Positions 43,285 through 50,865 of a stretch of 64,000 nucleotides of DNA are shown one piece after another. Every line of letters starts with the position of its first letter. Within the stretch, counting starts at the first letter, position 1. This DNA is from Acutalibacteraceae bacterium. Lineage in GTDB: Bacteria; Bacillota; Clostridia; Oscillospirales; Acutalibacteraceae. The position numbers were made by a program, and so were the translations under genes. The stretch is from positions 3,704 to 67,703 of the forward strand of contig JAZNVG010000029.1 in assembly GCA_045592705.1 (NCBI GenBank), in the 5' to 3' direction. The notes beneath the pieces were generated by a model, which made no database searches, was not told where the DNA came from, and saw only the letters and a program-made list of their open reading frames with translations.

Positions 43285-44784
43285 ATGTATAGATTAATCT
43301 CGCTTGTGCTTTCAGCTGTTATGGTGTTTGCGGGCACTGCCGTTAATACGGTCGATTCTGTGCTTGATTCCGTGTCAGAAATGCTTTTCGGTCTTCCTTT
43401 TACTGATTATGCGGTTGAAAGTGATTTTCTTGATTCGGCTGATGACAGCAATATTGAAAAACTTTCAGGCAGCTTGGGGTATGCCCGAGACACGGTTATT
43501 GTTTTTCTTAAAAGTGATGTCGGATTTAAAGAAAAACGTGCGGTTTTTGAAGAATATGCTGACGGCGGAATTGTTGTCGGTTGGTATGCCCCTGCAAGTC
43601 TTTATGTTATAAAATATCCGTTTGCAGATTATAACACTTTAATTGCAAAGAGTGAAAAACTGAGCGAAAACGAAAATGTCGCTTATGCCGGTCTCAGTTA
43701 TGCAAGGCATTATGAAAGCCAGTGGACTCCCAATGACCCCTTTGACCCCGAAGAAGAAAACATCTGGGATGAAGCATCGCCCGACGGTGCAAATTGGTGG
43801 CTTGAGGCAATTAATGCAAGACAGGCTTGGGATTATTCTCAATATTTCAAGAAAGTCAGACTCGGTGTTGTTGACAGCGGTTTTTATACCGAACAGCCCG
43901 ATTTGAAAGGGAAAATATTCTTCCCCAATGCACTTTCGGCATGGTTGAATTCCTGGAATTATCACGGCTCACACGTTGCGGGAATTATTGCCGCACAGGC
44001 TGATAACGGTGTCGGTATTGCGGGTGTCTGTCAGACGGCAGAACTTGTCTGTTGTGACTGGCAACCTTCGGCTTTACAGTTCTGGATTGAAGACCTTGCC
44101 ATTTTCTTCTCCATCGGCAAAGTCATTAAATCGGGCGCAAAAGCTGTTAATCTTTCCTTCGGCCTTGTGGTGGACGGTGAAAAAGCACCGTGGTATTTTG
44201 TAAGTTCCGACGCAACGATTTATTCGATTTATATGGCATCTTTGCTTGATAAAGGCTATGATTTTGTTGTGGTTCAGTCTGCCGGTAACGGTAACGCTGA
44301 CGGTTTGCCGATTGACTCTGTGAACAACGGCACTTTTGCCAGCATAACGCCCGAAACCGTAACGAATTACGGTTATGAGCACATTCCGACAAGTGAGCTG
44401 CTCGACCGCATTATTATTGTTGCGGCGGCTGAAAATCTTGGTGAAGGCAATTACCGCCTTTCTTCTTATTCAAACACGGGCAGATATGTTTCAATTGCCG
44501 CACCCGGTGAAAATATTTACAGCTGTGTCAATGAAGATGATGCTTATTATTATCTTTCGGGCACATCAATGGCGGCGCCGGTTGTAACGGGTGTCTGCGG
44601 GCTTGTGTGGTCGGTCAATCCGTCATTTACGGGCAAGCAGGTCAAAGAAATTGTCTGCTCAAGCACAAAAGATGTTGCCCAAAAATATGTCGGTGAGGGT
44701 TATTATACCTCTGTTGAATACCGCGATATTCCGATGGTAAATGCTCAGCTTGCCGTTGAAAAAGCAATAGAATATATTCATTAA
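43285..44784 (+). CDS. Secreted S8 (subtilisin-like) serine peptidase
   Basis: Signal peptide; catalytic triad VVDSG, HGSHVAG, GTSMAAP; oxyanion SAGN. Confidence 0.94.
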   Translation: MYRLISLVLSAVMVFAGTAVNTVDSVLDSVSEMLFGLPFTDYAVESDFLDSADDSNIEKLSGSLGYARDTVIVFLKSDVGFKEKRAVFEEYADGGIVVGWYAPASLYVIKYPFADYNTLIAKSEKLSENENVAYAGLSYARHYESQWTPNDPFDPEEENIWDEASPDGANWWLEAINARQAWDYSQYFKKVRLGVVDSGFYTEQPDLKGKIFFPNALSAWLNSWNYHGSHVAGIIAAQADNGVGIAGVCQTAELVCCDWQPSALQFWIEDLAIFFSIGKVIKSGAKAVNLSFGLVVDGEKAPWYFVSSDATIYSIYMASLLDKGYDFVVVQSAGNGNADGLPIDSVNNGTFASITPETVTNYGYEHIPTSELLDRIIIVAAAENLGEGNYRLSSYSNTGRYVSIAAPGENIYSCVNEDDAYYYLSGTSMAAPVVTGVCGLVWSVNPSFTGKQVKEIVCSSTKDVAQKYVGEGYYTSVEYRDIPMVNAQLAVEKAIEYIH

Positions 44785-44788
44785 AAAC

Positions 44789-44857
44789 AGAGCACGGTTG
44801 GAAATCGTGTAACGGGCTATAACCTGTTCGAGGGTTCGAATCCCTTGCTCTCCGCCA
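44789..44857 (+). pseudogene. 5'-truncated tRNA-Ser(GGA): 3' two-thirds only
   Basis: Anticodon stem CACGG/TCGTG with loop TTGGAAA, 6-bp variable arm, T-arm GAGGG-TTCGAAT-CCCTT, 3' acceptor strand GCTCTCC-G-CCA; no 5' acceptor strand or D-loop upstream (S8 stop codon is 4 nt before). Confidence 0.88.
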
Positions 44858-44858
44858 G

Positions 44859-44893
44859 AACCCCATGGAAGTAATAGCTTCTGTGGGGTTTTT
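44859..44893 (+). terminator. Terminator directly after the tRNA remnant
   Basis: AACCCCATGGAAG / CTTCTGTGGGGTT stem + T run. Confidence 0.75.
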
Positions 44894-44898
44894 CTTAT

Positions 44899-45073
44899 GC
44901 TTTCAGCCACAGAAAAGCATACACAAAACCCACTTTCGGCGACGAAAAGATGACGACAGGGCGAGCATATATACCTATGGTCGGCAAGATAATCCCTTAT
45001 CGTCGTCGGTTGATGCTTTTGTAGTGGATTTTTTGATGTGGGTATGATATAATTCAAATCAACAAATAAGATT
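44899..45073 (+). repeat. Repeat copy A (degenerate X module + full Y/promoter module)
   Basis: GCTTTCA-N11-GCATACA-N8-ACTTTC..CGACGAAAAGA; TATGGTCGGCAAGAT (44976-44990); 37-nt promoter block 45024-45060. Confidence 0.85.
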
Positions 45074-45107
45074 TTATGAGCCGATTAAAAAAATCAGGGA
45101 GATTCCT

Positions 45108-47450
45108 ATGAACATTTTACAGACAATTATTTCTTATCTTGCAATAGCGGCAGCTTTTATTTCTTCTTGTTTTTCGTTTGGTGATTCGGCAATGATACCT
45201 TATACAAATTATTACAAGATTCCCGACAGTATTCCCGAATACAGTGTGATTTCCACGCAGGAGAAAACCGAGTGGAAAGCCAAATGGATCTGGGATAAGG
45301 AAAACCTGACGTAGAAAAATGTCTGGATGTGCTTTAATAAAAAGGTCAGTCTTGATACGATTCCCGAAGAACTTACTGCCGACATCTCAGCCGACTCGAA
45401 ATATTGGCTTTACATAAACGGAGAAACCGTTGTTTTTGAGGGCAGCGTGAAACGAGGCCCCGATAAAAACAGCGGATATTATGACAGTATAGATATTGCA
45501 CCTTATCACAAAGAGGGTGAAAACTCAATTTGTGCTTTGGTGTGGTTCTGGGATAATGAAACAAGCTATTCATACAGTAGCAGCGGTCAGGGAGGTTTCA
45601 TTTTTGAAGCCATAGGGGAAAACATCACCGTAATTTCCGACAAAAGCTGGAAGGTGAAAAGGAACAGTGCTTATGTTGACAGCATTCTTTATCCTCCAAA
45701 TTACAGACTTCCCGAATACAGTATTTATTTCGATGCAAGGAAAGATCCGGGCGATTGGATAGACGAAGCCTATGATGTTTCAGATTGGGAAAATGCAACC
45801 GAATATGCCGTCGGCGGCGAGGGTGCTTACGGCAAGCTTTATCCGAGAGGAATACCGTTTTTAAAGGATTACGGTCTTAAAGATTACGAAAATTCAAAGG
45901 ATTATGAAAACTATACCGTAAAGAAGCTTTTCGGCGAAAAAATCACTGTAGATGTTCCCTATAACGCACAGCTTACTCCCTATCTTAAAATCATAGCACC
46001 TAAAGGCAAAAAGATTCGCATAACAACGGAAAACACCTTAATCGGCGCAGTTTCAACTACCTACATAACAAGAGAGGGAGAGCAGGAGTTTGAAGCTTTA
46101 GGCTGGTTTAACGGCGAGCATATTACTTATAAAATACCGAGAGGCGTTACGGTTGTTTCTTTGATGTACCGTGAAACGGGATACGACAGCTTATTCTGCG
46201 GTGACTTCAAGTGCGATGATGAATTTCTGAATTCGCTGTGGCAAAAATCCCTGCGTACTCTCTATGTTACAATGCGTGACAGTTTTATGGACTGTCCCGA
46301 CAGAGAAAGAGCCCAATGGTGGGGCGATGTCACAAGTGAAATGATTATGACGATGTACTCTATGGACAGCAATTCCTATCTGCTGTATCAAAAGGGTGTT
46401 GAGGCTATGCTTTCTCACGTTGATGACACAAAAGTGCTTCAGACCGTTGTGCCCATAAGCGGTGACTATTTTGAGCTTCCCGTTCAGCAGCTTGCAGGAA
46501 TCGTCGGTTTCCTCACTTACTATGAATATACCGGCGACAAGGCTTTTATCGAAAAGGTTTATGATGCTTCCCTTGACTACCTGAAGCTTTGGGAAATCGG
46601 TGAAAATAATCTTGTTGTGCATAGAGGCGGCTCGTGGGATTGGGCTGATTGGGGCAAAAAGGCAGATATGACAGCCATCGAAAACGCCTGGGTTTACTAT
46701 GCTCTTTCCGCCGCAGAGGAGATGGCGGAGCTTTTGGGAAAAGACGAGGACATCTCATTTATTACCGAAAGAAAAGATACTATCTCAAAGGGGTATAAGA
46801 CTCTTTGGAATGAAGAAGGCTTCAAAAGTAAAAAAGTAAGAAAACCCGACGACAGAGCCAATGCCCTTGCGGTATTGTCGGGGCTTGCAGAAAAAGAGCA
46901 GTATGATACTATTACAAATGTACTCACAACCGCTAAAAATTCAAGCCCGTATATGGAATACTATGTTCTTGAAGCTCTTTGCAAAATGGGGAAATATGAA
47001 GCGGCAAAAGACAGAATTAAGGACAGATACGAGGGCATGATGAGCGAGAATTATTCTACTCTCTGGGAATTCTGGGACTCCTGGCGAGGCACCAAGAATC
47101 ACGCTTGGAGCGGCGGCCCTCTTGTAATAATGAGTAAGCATTTTGCAGGCATCACTCCCCTTGAAGCAGGCTATGAAAAGGTTAAAATCGAGCCTCAATA
47201 CACTCTGTCCGACCGTATGAACTGTACCGTTCCGAGCGTAAAAGGGTTAATCACTCTGAATTATAAAAGGACTTCCGGGGATTATATTATCGACCTTACT
47301 CTCCCGCAAGGAATGAAAGCTGTTTTATATGTACCGACCGGTTCTGTTGTAAACATCAATTCAGAGGTTTATTATCAAAACGGTGAGTATGTAAAAAGCG
47401 ACATCATCGGTGATGTGGAGATTGCAGAAAAAGCGCTCGATAACGGATAA
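45108..47450 (+). pseudogene. GH78 alpha-L-rhamnosidase-like gene interrupted by an in-frame TAG at 45312-45314
   Basis: ORFs 45108-45314 and 45327-47450 share a frame (WIWDKENLT*KNVWMCF); DCPDRERAQWWGD, STLWEFW, NHAWSGGP; N-terminal hydrophobic signal. Confidence 0.85.
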
Positions 47451-47489
47451 GGTAAATTTCAATTTATCGAAATAAACAATAAAACTGTT

Positions 47490-47526
47490 AAGTGCAATGG
47501 GATGTGAAATCCTGTTGCACTTTTTT
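47490..47526 (+). terminator. Terminator-like hairpin after the GH78 gene
   Basis: AAGTGCAA..GGGAT / ATCC..TTGCACTT + T6. Confidence 0.7.
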
Positions 47527-47547
47527 ATTTGTAAAGGAGCAAATCAA

Positions 47548-47596
47548 ATGAAACAAACAACACTTGAAGATTTATTCTACGGTAATATTGACTCTT
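47548..47596 (+). pseudogene. N-terminal stub of a DUF6809-like small protein, cut at the repeat boundary
   Basis: AAAGGAG RBS + MKQTTLEDLFYGNI (resembles the 'ILEELYYGNI' start of DUF6809 proteins, from recall); after codon 16 the frame runs into repeat B. Confidence 0.5.
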
Positions 47597-47786
47597 ACAA
47601 AGTAACCAAGCTTTCAAAGCCTGTATGCACACAGTCAGAGGACTTCCACGACGAAAAGACGACGACAGACCGAGCAGAAATATCCATATGGTCGGCAAGA
47701 TGTTCCTTTACTGTCGGCATATGATGTTTTTATTGTGGATTTTTTAATGTGGGTATGATATAATTCAAATCGGTAAATAAGAATTT
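47597..47786 (+). repeat. Repeat copy B (full X + Y modules)
   Basis: 47597-47647 is 50/51 identical to 49035-49085; 47735-47771 is 36/37 identical to 45024-45060; 47687-47701 is identical to 44976-44990. Confidence 0.93.
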
Positions 47787-47819
47787 ACAGATTGTTTTAG
47801 TTTGATTGGAGGTATTTTT

Positions 47820-48998
47820 ATGAAATATCGTGAGGATAAATACGGCAATAAACTTTCTGCTTTAGGCTTCGGCTGTATGCGATTTAAAAAGAAAATGGGC
47901 AGAATAAATATGGAGGATGCAGAGCGTCAGATAATGTCAGCTTTTAATAAGGGCGTAAATTATTTTGACACAGCATTTATTTATCCCGGAAGCGAATCGG
48001 CAATAGGAGAAATTTTTGAAAAAAACAATATCCGCGACCAAGTCTATATTGCAACAAAACTTCCTCCACAGCTTATGCGCAGTACAGATATACTTGATAA
48101 GCTTTTTAACGAACAGTTAAAAAGACTTCGTACGGATCATATTGATTTTTATCTTATGCATATGATGGCCGACATTAAGATTTGGGAACGTCTGAAAAGT
48201 ATAGGAATTGAAAAGTGGATAGAAGAGAAAAAAGCAAGCGGTGCAATTCGTCAGATCGGATTTTCATATCATGGCGGTTCGGATATGTTCTGCAAAATTA
48301 TTGATGCTTATGACTGGGATATGTGTCTTATTCAGTATAACTATATGGATGAACATACTCAGGCAGGGCGTAAAGGCTTGAATTATGCCAACGAAAAGGG
48401 GATTCCCGTTATGATTATGGAGCCTCTTCGCGGCGGCAGACTTGTCAATAATCTTCCGTCGGATGCAAAACGGATTTTTGATGAGCATACCGTTAAACAC
48501 ACTCCTGCGCAGTGGGCATTTCGCTGGCTGTGGAATCAGCCTGAGGTCACGGTTGTGCTTTCGGGCATGAATTCAGATGAAATGGTAGAGGATAATATCA
48601 AAACTGCATCTGACACCGAAATCGGCGAGTTGACCGCCAACGATGAAGAAATGCTTAAGAGAGTTGTTAAAGCTATCAACGCAAAGATGAAAGTTCCTTG
48701 TACCGGATGCGGATACTGTATGCCCTGCCCTCAAAACGTTAATATCAGCGGAACTTTTTCTGCATATAACCGTCGTTTTACCGATAGCAGCTTTGCTGGC
48801 TTCAAAGAGTATATCAAAAATACAATTTCACAGCAATATGCACCGGTATCAAAATGCGTAGGCTGTGGAAAATGCGAAAAGCATTGTCCGCAGAGCATTG
48901 AGATAAGAAAACAGCTCAAAGAAGCCGAAAAAGAGCTTGAAAGCAACGCGTACAAAGCGCTCAGCAAAGTTGTATCGGTGTTCGGAAAGAACAAATAA
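47820..48998 (+). CDS. Aldo/keto reductase with C-terminal 4Fe-4S dicluster domain (second paralog, cassette cargo)
   Basis: GFGCMRF, NYFDTAFIY, IDFYLMH, IMEPLRGG; CTGCGYCMPC and CVGCGKCEKHCP; start after GGAGG. Confidence 0.92.
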   Translation: MKYREDKYGNKLSALGFGCMRFKKKMGRINMEDAERQIMSAFNKGVNYFDTAFIYPGSESAIGEIFEKNNIRDQVYIATKLPPQLMRSTDILDKLFNEQLKRLRTDHIDFYLMHMMADIKIWERLKSIGIEKWIEEKKASGAIRQIGFSYHGGSDMFCKIIDAYDWDMCLIQYNYMDEHTQAGRKGLNYANEKGIPVMIMEPLRGGRLVNNLPSDAKRIFDEHTVKHTPAQWAFRWLWNQPEVTVVLSGMNSDEMVEDNIKTASDTEIGELTANDEEMLKRVVKAINAKMKVPCTGCGYCMPCPQNVNISGTFSAYNRRFTDSSFAGFKEYIKNTISQQYAPVSKCVGCGKCEKHCPQSIEIRKQLKEAEKELESNAYKALSKVVSVFGKNK

Positions 48999-49034
48999 CA
49001 TATACTATATACAGAAAATTTGCAGAATGTTTTG

Positions 49035-49107
49035 ACAAAGTAACCAAGCTTTCAAAGTCTGTATGCACACAGTCAGAGGACTTCCGACAATCAAAAGACG
49101 ACAACAG
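49035..49107 (+). repeat. Repeat copy C (X module + first part of Y)
   Basis: ACAAAGTAACCAAGCTTTCAAAGTCTGTATGCACACAGTCAGAGGACTTCC then AAAAGACGACAACAG; similarity ends at about 49107. Confidence 0.93.
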
Positions 49108-49136
49108 CGGCGACTGTGCTTTTTGTTAAATATTAG

Positions 49137-49165
49137 TTGTAATTGTATTTTTTTTGTGCTATAAT
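49137..49165 (+). promoter_or_regulatory. SigA promoter of the GH13 gene
   Basis: TTGTAA-17 nt-TATAAT with extended TG. Confidence 0.7.
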
Positions 49166-49194
49166 ATTCAAGAATATTATGATGAGGTGATAAT

Positions 49195-50865
49195 ATGAGC
49201 GACATCAAAAAGACTTGGTTCAAAGAAATGGCTGTTTACCAGATCTGGCCCCGCAGCTTCTATGACGGCAACGGTGACGGTATCGGTGATATTAAAGGTG
49301 TTATGGAAAAGCTTGATTACATCAAGAGCCTCGGCGTTGATGCAATCTGGTTTTCTCCGCTTTACAAATCCCCCCAGCACGACTACGGCTATGACATTGC
49401 CGATTACAGGTCAATTGCACCCGAATACGGCACTCTTGAAGAGTTCAAGGAACTGCTTGACGCCGCCCACAGCAAGGGTCTGAAAATTATTATGGACCTT
49501 GTTATCAACCACACATCAAACGAACACGAGTGGTTTATCGAAAGCCAGAAGAGCAAGGATAATCCTTATCATGATTACTATTTCTGGCGCAAGGGTAAAA
49601 AGCCTCCCAACAACTGGCTTTCAACCTTTGCAGGCCCCGGCTGGCATTACAACGAAAACCTTGACGAGTGGTATCTCACTCTTTTCGCAAAGGAACAGCC
49701 CGACCTTAATATGGATAATCCTAAGGTTCGTGAAGAAATCAAAGATATCATCCGTTTCTGGCTTGATATGGGTGTTGACGGCTTCCGTGAAGACGTTATC
49801 ACTTTCATTTCAAAGAAAGAGGGTCTGCCCAACGGCTTCCCCATTCCCGTTGCCTGCGGCATGGAGCACTATAAAAACGGTCCCAATCTTCAGAAGTATC
49901 TCGGTGAATTCAGAAAAGTTACCGACAACTATGACTGTATGACCGTCGGTGAAGCTCCCATGATGACTCCCAGACTTGCTCTCAAATTCATCAAAGAGGG
50001 TGCAGAGCAGAAGCTTAATATGATGTTCAACTTCCAGCATATGGAAGCTGACTGCTTCCTTGTCAGCTGGATTCCCATGCCCTTCAGCCTTAAAAAGCTT
50101 AAGAAGGTTTATAACAACTGGCAGAACAAGCTTTACGGCATTGCGTGGAATGCAAACTACATCGAAAACCACGACCAGCCCAGAATCATCAGCCGTTACG
50201 GCAGTGAAAAGTTCAGAGTTGAAAGCGGCAAAATGCTTGCAACAATGTACATCTGCCAGAGCGGTACACCCTTTATTTATCAGGGTCAGGAAATCGGTAT
50301 GGTTAACATAAAGCTTCCCGATGTAAATATGTACACCGACGTGCAGACAAAGAATACTTATCAGCTTTTCAGAAAGCTTGGTTTCTCGGAAAAAGCAACT
50401 CTCAAGGTTGTCAACCGTGCATCCCGTGATAATGCAAGAACACCCGTTCAGTGGTCTGCCGAAAAGAATGCAGGCTTCACCACTGCTGACGAGCCCTGGT
50501 TCTTCATTAACGATAATTACACGGAAATCAACGTTGAGGCTGCCGAAAAGGATGAGAATTCACTTCTCAACTATTACCGCAAGCTTCTCAAATTCCGTAA
50601 GGAAAACGAGGTTTGTATTTACGGCGATTTCAAGCTTCATTACAAGAGCAGCAAAAAACTGTTTGTTTATGAGCGTAATTATGAGGGCAAGAGAATGCTT
50701 GTCATCAACTCTTTTGTTGAAGAGCCCGTGACATTTACCGCTCCTGACGGCTTTAATCTCAGCAAGGGCAAGCTTGTTCTTTCAAACTATGATGTTGTTA
50801 CCGACGGCACTCTCAACAGCTTCCAGACCAAGCCTTACGAAACACGCGTTTATCTTTTTGATTAA
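49195..50865 (+). CDS. GH13 oligo-1,6-glucosidase / alpha-glucosidase
   Basis: YQIWPRSFYDGNGDGIGD, DLVINH, QPDLN, GFREDV, TVGE, NHDQPR, SRDNARTPVQW. Confidence 0.93.
   Translation: MSDIKKTWFKEMAVYQIWPRSFYDGNGDGIGDIKGVMEKLDYIKSLGVDAIWFSPLYKSPQHDYGYDIADYRSIAPEYGTLEEFKELLDAAHSKGLKIIMDLVINHTSNEHEWFIESQKSKDNPYHDYYFWRKGKKPPNNWLSTFAGPGWHYNENLDEWYLTLFAKEQPDLNMDNPKVREEIKDIIRFWLDMGVDGFREDVITFISKKEGLPNGFPIPVACGMEHYKNGPNLQKYLGEFRKVTDNYDCMTVGEAPMMTPRLALKFIKEGAEQKLNMMFNFQHMEADCFLVSWIPMPFSLKKLKKVYNNWQNKLYGIAWNANYIENHDQPRIISRYGSEKFRVESGKMLATMYICQSGTPFIYQGQEIGMVNIKLPDVNMYTDVQTKNTYQLFRKLGFSEKATLKVVNRASRDNARTPVQWSAEKNAGFTTADEPWFFINDNYTEINVEAAEKDENSLLNYYRKLLKFRKENEVCIYGDFKLHYKSSKKLFVYERNYEGKRMLVINSFVEEPVTFTAPDGFNLSKGKLVLSNYDVVTDGTLNSFQTKPYETRVYLFD

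Follow-up and report, generated by a model that had tools for sequence, protein, structure and literature searches.

The insertion between an S8 peptidase gene and a GH13 gene in the window, the whole 64,000-nucleotide stretch of Acutalibacteraceae DNA analysed here, is probably the decayed, integrase-less remnant of tandemly accreted elements specific for the 3′ end of tRNA-Ser(GGA), copied to this ectopic site. The array looks like an integron without being one. The initial annotation had read it as a cassette array of the integron type, with decayed tandem integrative elements as a fallback; it is the fallback that the evidence favours.

Anatomy of the insertion

The insertion covers approximately 44772–49194, or about 4.4 kb. 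The order first read from the sequence, namely a tRNA piece, GH78, a stub, an aldo/keto reductase (AKR) and the host GH13 gene, is borne out by the ORF list and Pfam, and single genes are indeed delimited by repeats, each behind its own promoter-like block. The features are the following.

43285–44784, + strand: S8 subtilase, left host flank (Pfam PF00082; comparison with 17 congeners)
44790–44857, + strand: 3′ 68 nt of tRNA-Ser(GGA), att core of the element family (97–100% identity to the 3′ part of intact tRNA-Ser(GGA) genes and to fragments next to integrases in relatives)
44857–44900, + strand: 'term' hairpin and T-run, intrinsic-terminator-like (terminator scan)
44938–45007, + strand: Y1 copy A, a double GACGACG (44938–44956) followed by inverted CGTCG repeats (motif census)
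45011–45076, + strand: Y2 copy A, a promoter-like block with the L half of the inverted repeat edging the cargo (sequence reading)
45108–47450, + strand: cargo 1, GH78 alpha-L-rhamnosidase (Pfam, ORF list)
47454–47522, + strand: R half of the inverted repeat (47454–47472) and T2 terminator hairpin (47490–47522) (terminator scan, slot-edge comparison)
47548–47647, + strand: DUF6809 remnant B, including X at 47597–47647 (tblastn with the intact 97-aa relative)
47647–47786, + strand: Y1 and Y2 copy B, with the GACGAC motif at 47647–47665 and the −10 box at 47759–47764 (motif census, repeat alignment)
47820–48998, + strand: cargo 2, AKR with a C-terminal 4Fe-4S dicluster domain (PF00248, Fer4 families)
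49020–49114, + strand: DUF6809 remnant C (codons ~28–47, X at 49035–49085), right end of the insertion (tblastn, motif census)
49137–49194, + strand: predicted TG-extended promoter and leader of GH13 (promoter scan, 10/12 matches with TG)
49195–50865, + strand: GH13 alpha-glucosidase-type gene, right host flank (Pfam PF00128)

The search for empty sites proposed at the outset was productive. The S8 and GH13 genes are contiguous in 17 of the 20 congeners checked, and modules occur at none of the 20 sites. In these 17 congeners S8 reads on and terminates ~20 bp ahead of GH13, whereas the S8 gene of the window lacks their ~90-aa C-terminal extension and its homology to them stops near 44771. GH13 has orthologues in 114 of the 121 genus genomes; its promoter and leader are without counterpart in congeners, whose GH13 comes straight after S8.

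The tRNA remnant noticed initially covers the anticodon stem-loop, variable arm, T arm, 3′ acceptor strand and CCA. ARAGORN makes no tRNA call over the window and the piece is not functional as a tRNA; the intact tRNA-Ser(GGA) gene of the same genome lies on another contig (C34:44512–44603). The 'term' hairpin follows the core throughout the family and is 90–100% conserved in relatives. Contig C47, which carries a second decayed array, is the only other place in this genome that has it. The T2 and 'term' hairpins together are confined to these two arrays, plus one T2-like copy, so that a role as generic genus-wide terminators is rejected. Y2 copy A consists of TGGATT (45025–45030), a 17-nt spacer and TGnTATAAT with its −10 box at 45048–45053, a block conserved across 46 slots of the genus. 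It would act as an active promoter, and terminator function is likewise predicted for the hairpins. Y1 is a putative set of binding sites, of the arm type (P′ arm) or for a regulator. A structured RNA or leader was also considered for Y1 and rejected: 48 aligned copies give a consensus fold of −4.4 kcal/mol with compensatory changes at 0 of 11 pairs. Rfam has no match to X or Y.

Regarding the cargo, GH78 is broken by an in-frame TAG (45312–45314), and when read through this stop it shows 84–91.5% amino-acid identity to the GH78 cargo of five other arrays. The AKR gene likely starts at the ATG at 47820, behind GGAGG; a homologue with 91% amino-acid identity fills one of the slots of another genome, where the flanks are different.

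The direct repeat X matches at 50 of 51 positions (47597–47647 and 49035–49085) with a period of 1438 bp, and the similarity reaches 73 bp at 92% identity when extended. Copies A and B have Y in common (108 nt at 82% and 44 nt at 80%) at a spacing of ~2711 bp. A search beyond the locus turned these modules up in 53 public loci; of 24 sampled congeners, 10 have them. With such recurrence the repeats lie far outside what chance would give. The meaning first given to X does not survive. It had been taken for a recombination core, and it is an internal coding piece of DUF6809, codons ~28–47; its short dyads are therefore incidental, and one is already broken in copy C. Nor is copy A a diverged X; the two are only weakly similar (22 of 38 positions identical), and 18 of 2000 shuffles attain this score. 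The GCTTTCA...ACTTTC of copy A is the standard lead-in to the GACGAC motif, with ~48 copies in relatives, and the GCAYACA word of the proposed pattern is missing from the family consensus.

The intact 97-aa DUF6809 relative matches PF20648 with 75.8 bits (E=4.9e-21, cut-off 27). The 58-aa remnant in the window has no Pfam match, yet tblastn aligns it to residues 1–47 of the intact relative; it reads as a fragmentary pseudogene of this family, whose gene is intact in congeners. Remnant B comprises codons 1–15, a 45-bp internal deletion and then codons ~31–47. Remnant C continues into a degenerate GACGAC motif (49086–49104) and then into 10 nt similar to the integrase-side arm. The AF2 model of DUF6809 is a helical hairpin (pLDDT 77, pTM 0.41) with no fold match in the PDB; NCBIfam and PHROG gave zero matches, and no paper on its function was found. 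Its position at the extreme end of mobile elements, here and beside TnpV elsewhere, provides the first contextual clue to this family.

The tRNA-Ser(GGA) element family in relatives

In relatives, the core, the 'term' hairpin and the Y block come after intact tRNA-Ser(GGA) genes, and the core is the att site of an undescribed family of integrative elements with a tyrosine integrase. Their intact order is core (60–68 nt), 'term', Y1, an optional Y2 with one cargo ORF and T2, DUF6809, a ~10-kb backbone, the integrase, a second GACGACG motif and the next core. For example, the tyrosine integrase (PF00589, phrog_1) lies ~470 bp to the left of a 61-nt tRNA-Ser fragment in genome G012, and the cognate integrase adjoins the att site in loci L009, L040, L047 and L057. 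Locus L040 contains two complete elements with their backbones in tandem. GACGAC(N)AAAAGACGACG sites are located ~130 nt left of the core by the integrase, ~80 nt right of the core and ~150 nt past DUF6809, and hybrid copies with reciprocal flanks are present in L032, L065 and L060. The motif may bind the integrase, an excision factor or a regulator of the element. Comparison of the backbone proteins with Pfam, PHROG, NCBIfam and the PDB gave nothing beyond the integrase and one DUF1643 protein, and no conjugation or mobilisation genes were recognised. Modules are 85–100% identical between species whose IspH-S1 proteins are ~69% identical.

The early observation that no integrase was in view extends to the whole contig (C29), from which recombinases are absent. 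The cognate integrase is missing from this genome (best match 24% identity), so the window copy can only be a decayed derivative. The supposition that a recombinase was supplied in trans is nevertheless plausible, because the tyrosine integrase of relatives sits beside the same tRNA core. The cognate integrase was found in 4 of 121 genus genomes versus ~35 with array-type DUF6809 copies, and therefore most arrays are without a visible driver. The window retains a single core copy and its right end is a DUF6809 remnant with a degenerate motif, so attL and attR are not both kept, as excision in cis would require.

Origin of the one-gene slots

The sister species G007 has both end junctions of the insertion, S8/tRNA fragment on the left and X/motif/GH13 promoter on the right. 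Its interior is wholly different and contains an NRPS-like gene, an AMP-ligase and a methylase element. Within this syntenic locus, the integrase-side arm of the methylase element is fused to a second core. Even when it lies apart from any tRNA gene, a tRNA fragment can thus still serve as a landing pad, since a fresh element junction lies within it in the sister species. The junction between DUF6809 and Y falls at codon 47 in the window, at codon ~83 in L041, ~58 in L050 and ~42 in L058; junctions at so many positions are what illegitimate deletions would leave.

We infer the following order of events. Successive integrations at the core would pile elements up, and deletions at microhomologies and between repeated motifs would then strip backbones and integrases and leave a truncated DUF6809 fused to the Y block that follows. 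The leftover would be a row of promoter, single gene and terminator units, two of them here (GH78 and AKR). Recombination between the regulatory modules would reshuffle the remnant alongside deletion. The AKR unit is flanked by two X-Y1a copies, as expected from one crossover in X, which could be a Campbell-type insertion of a 1438-bp circle or an unequal exchange. Some points stand against accretion and decay: no site-specific step accounts for the array reaching the S8/GH13 site, and most arrays show no driver.

Genus-wide, Acutalibacteraceae MAGs yielded 46 promoter-to-terminator slots with ~35 cargo families, including glycosidases, transporters, immunity genes and ANT(6)- and CAT-like genes. 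Exactly one ORF is present in 36 of the 46 slots, occupying 90–99% of the slot. Each slot has its own TGnTATAAT block ahead and a terminator hairpin behind, and its edges form a 21–28-nt inverted repeat. Homology of AKR and GH78 across module contexts begins 12–20 nt before the ATG and stops at or just past the stop codon. Accretion and random deletion alone leave these tight one-ORF slots, the recurrence of cargo in varied contexts and the inverted-repeat edges unaccounted for.

One account of the arrays is homologous recombination between promoter-and-terminator cassettes, similar to the PeSL of T4-type phages, with the tRNA-Ser integrase merely delivering new material. As the main generator of the arrays this is possible though doubtful, and it complements accretion and decay rather than replacing them. 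The Y2 promoter and two families of terminator hairpin surround nearly all cargo and, in this genome, are confined to the arrays. X-Y1a direct repeats lie on both sides of AKR, a fucosidase is found behind a tRNA-proximal module in L055 and behind a DUF6809 module in L037, and mini-circles belong to the precedent (PMC2839356). However, recombination of this kind shifts existing joints between module and cargo and cannot make new ones, and many junctions have only microhomology.

Another account is a site-specific capture of cassettes. The slot at the att-proximal end (Y2, L, one RBS and ORF, R, T2) would be a dedicated ORF-capture site, and promoterless RBS-ORF units would enter the palindrome TTCGACAAAT-N4-ATTTGTCGAA, which separates the Y2 promoter from the T2 terminator. 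The recombinase serving this functional analogue of an integron would act in trans and might be one of the backbone proteins without a known family. We consider both the dedicated site and the capture process improbable, although several observations fit them. In addition to the single ORFs and the diversity of their families, the slot-edge repeat reaches 72% complementarity across 21 nt (14 distinct slots), GH78 has an R-like half-site behind it in 4 of 6 contexts with differing downstream DNA, two AKR copies have only the RBS and ORF in common, and sister species differ in the interior although the site has no integrase. On the other hand, the pairing of L with R within a slot does not exceed that of shuffled partners (213 versus 214.5 of 294 cells), which also leaves a 5′/3′ UTR pairing or folded DNA unsupported as explanations of this repeat. 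The L or R site is missing in many slots, the edges shift by several bases, the spacer is AAGA in L and TCCA in R, and an empty palindromic site was found neither in any locus nor in the genome. Folded-site covariation is absent from Y1 and from the L/R edges.

The enzymology of integrons is also missing, and this part of the original proposal is unsupported: an integron integrase, a folded attC-like site and a conserved crossover point were all absent. An integron platform is defined by an integrase scoring at least 265 bits against TIGR02249; the best match in this genome, on a contig other than the recombinase-free one analysed, scores 50 bits, and the element integrase of relatives scores 57 bits. 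One attC, an imperfect palindrome of ~57–141 bp that folds, is expected at the 3′ end of each cassette, and attC-type sites were not found; the modules between ORFs are 240–510 bp long and hold a gene and a promoter. Finally, integron cassettes are promoterless behind a common Pc promoter, and here every slot has its own predicted promoter-like block.

It is highly improbable that the ~510-bp T2-DUF6809-Y module is a non-autonomous transposable element with 21–28-bp terminal inverted repeats that inserts between genes and supplies a terminator and an outward promoter; its ends are inverted (24 of 30 positions in the reference copy) and it is well conserved across species, but it is confined to tRNA-Ser-linked arrays (two loci in this genome, 0 of 20 syntenic sites, never among core genes), DUF6809 is a 97-aa helical protein, and neither target-site duplications nor an associated transposase were seen.

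Comparison with known systems

A close parallel to accretion and decay is provided by integrative elements that target tRNA genes, accrete in tandem and decay into CIMEs, as in ICESt1/ICESt3 (reviewed in PMC5704250). Both use a partial copy of a tRNA 3′ end as att, which here remains at the boundary, and intact relatives carry a tyrosine integrase at one end. Tandem element–element junctions are present in L040 and G007, and decay leaves integrase-less units with att-derived sequence still at their bounds. Unlike those systems, the array lies off any tRNA gene, at an ectopic site with ends that are not site-specific. Its tRNA core is lost at most internal boundaries, where a terminator/DUF6809/motif/promoter module frames single ORFs instead, and its backbone has no recognised transfer genes.

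The tycheposon islands of Prochlorococcus (bioRxiv 10.1101/2020.12.28.424599) are likewise seeded at tRNAs, with repeated integration pushing older elements inward, scattered partial tRNAs, degraded elements and adaptive cargo. They differ in phylum and have an unrelated backbone; the cargo of the arrays sits in a standardised, att-proximal promoter–terminator slot, and no replication or PICI-like module was identified in the array elements. The PeSL of T4-type phages (PMC2839356, PMC4122927) surround single non-essential ORFs with a short conserved promoter and stem-loop, and differences between close relatives map to the modules. The same is seen here, where a predicted promoter and stem-loop bound the differences between G000 and G007. 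Unlike PeSL, the array is chromosomal and element-borne, and its modules, at 240–510 bp, are longer and contain a repeated DNA motif as well as a gene for a protein.

The array shares with integrons its rows of mostly single-ORF units, adaptive and resistance genes, inverted-repeat edges and variable content (G000 versus G007; ~35 families in 46 slots), as first suspected. It departs from them in having neither IntI nor attC-type folds, and in its per-unit promoter-like block, irregular junctions and tRNA att core as platform. What looked like an integrase-less integron thus becomes checkable, and it defines an undescribed tRNA-Ser(GGA)-specific integrative-element family of ruminant-gut Acutalibacteraceae. 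The att-proximal end of these elements would offer ready-made expression slots, and their decay products would be integron-like rows of accessory genes. If the one-ORF slots need a dedicated mechanism, genes would be captured by a new route in a phylum without integrons; and if the capture site is true, the Firmicutes would have an integron analogue that bears its own expression signals.

Insertion at the S8-GH13 site

The array between the S8 subtilase and GH13 genes of the window is best explained as decayed tandem integrative elements, a reading that we consider probable and that the initial annotation had offered as the alternative to an integron-like cassette array. Its observations of repeats and gene order largely hold; the order is S8 subtilase, GH78, a stub, an aldo/keto reductase (AKR) with an Fe-S domain, and GH13. 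The array has the following features, in window positions.

43285-44784: S8 subtilase gene
44790-44857: tRNA remnant, the 3' 68 nt of tRNA-Ser(GGA), from anticodon stem to CCA
44940-45076: copy A
45312-45314: in-frame TAG in the GH78 gene
47597-47647: repeat X in copy B
47644-47800: part of copy B aligned with copy A
49035-49085: repeat X in copy C
49137-49194: predicted TG-extended promoter, TTGTAA-17-TATAAT

The gene order IspH-S1, EamA, S8, GH13 is found in 17 of 20 congeneric genomes, in which S8 runs on for a further ~90 codons and its end is separated from the GH13 start by ~20 bp; two of the others are without S8 and one has another context. No array module is present at the S8/GH13 site in the 20 congeners examined. 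This, together with the S8-GH13 adjacency, identifies window ~44772-49194 as an insertion, which, as read from the sequence comparison, has cut the last ~90 codons of S8 and the S8-GH13 operon junction. The insertion also brought the new promoter that precedes GH13, as predicted by promoter scan.

The closest relative is a sister species (G007), with 97% amino-acid identity in GH13. It has in common with the window the S8/tRNA-fragment junction, which in G007 lies at a contig end, and the right junction, composed of DUF6809 codons 1-45 (in G007), a degenerate motif and the GH13 promoter. The G007 interior is wholly unlike that of the window and holds an NRPS-like 1400-aa gene, a 253-aa ORF, an AMP-ligase and a C5-methylase element, the integrase-side arm of which abuts a second 60-nt core. 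Thus, the same junctions, the other interior and the second core indicate that the stranded tRNA fragment has served as a landing pad since the insertion and that the interior has turned over.

Integrative elements at tRNA-Ser(GGA)

ARAGORN calls no tRNA gene in the window. The intact tRNA-Ser(GGA) of the same genome (contig C34:44512-44603) differs in its terminator and, over the part retained in the remnant, shows only 85% identity. In two congeneric loci (L011 and L016), an intact tRNA-Ser(GGA) that is 97-98% identical to the window fragment is followed directly by a terminator-like hairpin (term) and the Y block common to copies A and B. In congener G012, a 61-nt copy of the fragment has a tyrosine integrase (PF00589; phrog_1, E = 1.6e-81) ~470 bp to its left, and the same integrase also occurs in loci L040, L047 and L057.

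The backbone of these elements was defined by clustering all ORFs across 58 loci. The recurrent order is core, term hairpin, Y1 (the double GACGACG motif), an optional slot formed by the promoter-like block Y2, cargo and the terminator-like hairpin T2, then DUF6809 and 0-5 kb of variable genes. These are followed by a 187-aa DUF1643 protein and proteins of 152, 121, 255, 491, 206, 164, 188 and 121 aa, and the element ends with the integrase, the integrase-side motif and the next core. Of the backbone proteins, only the integrase and the DUF1643 protein have a match in Pfam, PHROGs, NCBIfam or PDB sequences. Accretion is directly evident in L040, where two such elements lie in tandem. The elements occur in Acutalibacteraceae MAGs of ruminant-gut origin; the tRNA-Ser element integrase is present in 4 of 121 genomes of the genus, and array-type DUF6809 copies in ~35. 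Defence genes are also among the cargo: the G012 element (L009:2669-7431) has a McrBC-like restriction pair, made up of a 979-aa AAA_5 ATPase and, after it, a 603-aa DUF2357 protein.

The two GACGACG words, 11 bp apart, occur in three fixed contexts: ~130 nt left of the core beside the integrase, ~80 nt right of the core (Y1a) and ~150 nt past the DUF6809 stop. Some copies are hybrids whose left and right flanks come from different contexts, and both reciprocal forms are represented (L032, L065 and L060). When 48 Y1 copies are aligned, the consensus fold is weak (-4.4 kcal/mol) and has no compensatory pairs, and an Rfam search of X and Y returned no match; Y1 therefore behaves as protein-binding DNA words. 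The proteins that bind them would be the integrase or an excision factor, with the words as arm-type sites, or a regulator of the element, with the words as operators. Y2 has the form TGGATT-17-TGnTATAAT and is missed by a consensus promoter scan because its -35 is weak.

The genome of the window contains no cognate integrase (best 24% identity) and no integron integrase, and its contig C29, of which the window is 3704-67703, carries no recombinase. It contains a second, more decayed array (C47:64359-70400; L096:4359-10400). From left to right, this comprises a mutated tRNA-Ser fragment (anticodon now GAA), the term hairpin, Y1/Y2, three ORFs (70, 392 and 817 aa), an R site (the right half of the inverted repeat edging cargo), a T2 hairpin, a DUF6809 start remnant without ATG, a 554-aa ORF and a further T2-like hairpin. 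The 4.5-kb contig C41 of this genome has a T2-like hairpin at 1712 and a 19-nt X match at 2598-2616, and may be a third array fragment.

Repeat X and the DUF6809 remnants

The direct repeat X is real, with 50 of 51 positions identical at a spacing of 1438 bp, and the similarity extends to 73 bp at 92% identity. Elsewhere in the genus, a single intact 97-codon gene (e.g. L009:696-989) comprises both the stub and X, and it matches Pfam DUF6809 (PF20648, E = 4.9e-21). By tblastn, copy B consists of codons 1-15 and, after a 45-bp deletion, codons ~31-47, and copy C of codons ~28-47. X is therefore a coding remnant and not the dyad-bearing recombination site proposed initially; the dyads have no standing, and one is lost in copy C. 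Copy A shares a ~140-bp block with copy B at ~82% identity and contains no part of DUF6809. Its GCTTTCA...ACTTTC stretch, which had been taken for a diverged X, is the standard sequence preceding the GACGAC motif in ~48 related copies, and X-like words are absent from their family consensus.

The AKR unit is flanked by two X-Y1a copies; copy B retains the 5' part of the resident gene, and in copy C the resident right junction is preserved, as are four further codons upstream. A single crossover would give this layout if it took place in X and joined the resident remnant to a circle, or to a sister copy, that carried X, Y, AKR and a spacer. The 1438-bp circle of the initial annotation is compatible with such an event, and unequal exchange fits equally well. 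The truncated DUF6809 gives way to Y at codon 47 in the window and at codons ~83, ~58 and ~42 in L041, L050 and L058, respectively, and each junction has microhomology of a few bases only. Judged by these junction sequences, the scatter is a signature of repeated illegitimate deletion and not of a fixed crossover point.

In other mobile elements, a generic DUF6809 subfamily, 30-35% identical, is found at the very end, where it adjoins a TnpV-family (PF14198) gene and a 53-aa ORF (L098:7001-7811, L099:7001-7811 and L100:1675-2485). The DNA on the DUF6809 side varies between contigs, and the host flank changes right beside the gene. A generic DUF6809 at a mobile-element edge is also found just to the left of the window (C29:1724-1993). 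The AF2 model of DUF6809 is a helical hairpin (pLDDT 77) with no fold match in the PDB, and we found no paper on the family. Its att-adjacent position in two unrelated element types suggests that DUF6809 may have an end-associated accessory or regulatory role.

Single-ORF slots and comparison with known systems

A slot was defined as the interval from Y2 (or Y1b) to the next T2 or DUF6809 (n = 46). Exactly one plus-strand ORF fills 90-99% of the slot in 36 of the 46. The slot ORFs form ~35 families, among them alpha-L-fucosidase, GH5, GH28 and GH78; EamA, MatE and Na/H exchanger; WapI-like immunity protein; ANT(6)-type adenylyltransferase and CAT-like acetyltransferase; methyltransferases, HNH and GIY-YIG proteins; and SDR, FAD oxidoreductase and AKR. 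In relatives' slots, the cargo includes an ANT(6)-type streptomycin adenylyltransferase (PF04439, E = 5e-94) and a CAT-family acetyltransferase (L069:5701-6564 and L033:72-707), so that resistance genes against aminoglycosides or phenicols may be spread by these arrays among Clostridia of the ruminant gut. The TAG in the GH78 rhamnosidase gene of the window lies past codon 68 and severs the signal-peptide region; read through it, the product is 84-91.5% identical to intact GH78 cargo in five other arrays, and the gene is either a recent pseudogene or the result of an assembly error.

The slots are edged by an inverted repeat, left ...TATAATTCAGTTCGACAAATAAGAATTT and right AAATTCCAATTTGTCGAACTAAAT..., which over 21-28 nt has the form TTCGACAAAT-N4-ATTT... 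/ ...AAAT-N4-ATTTGTCGAA. It spans the predicted first transcribed bases and the bases just past the stop codon (e.g. window 45055-45076 and 47454-47472; L009:1060-1100 and 600-632). In 14 distinct slots the halves are 72% complementary over 21 nt and show no covariation, same-slot pairs being no better than shuffled ones. Between two AKR copies (91% amino-acid identity), common sequence is limited to the ORF and the 12 nt ahead of its ATG; among six GH78 copies (84-91.5%), it runs from about -20 to ~20 nt past the stop, with an R-like half-site inside the common stretch in four of the six. A dedicated ORF-capture step behind the slots is improbable; this tight pattern can arise when deletions prune the slots under selection for expression.

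The integron-like reading finds partial support as a description of form, in the single-ORF slots, and none as a mechanism. The junctions are irregular, and the array departs from integrons in integrase, attC and common promoter alike; it is therefore not an integron. Among known processes, the nearest is the tandem, site-specific accretion of elements that then decay to cis-mobilisable remnants (PMC5704250), taken together with the tRNA-seeded island growth of tycheposons (10.1101/2020.12.28.424599). The regular promoter/terminator frame round single ORFs resembles the PeSL cassettes of T4-type phages, in which genes are shuffled by recombination and mini-circles are formed (PMC2839356).
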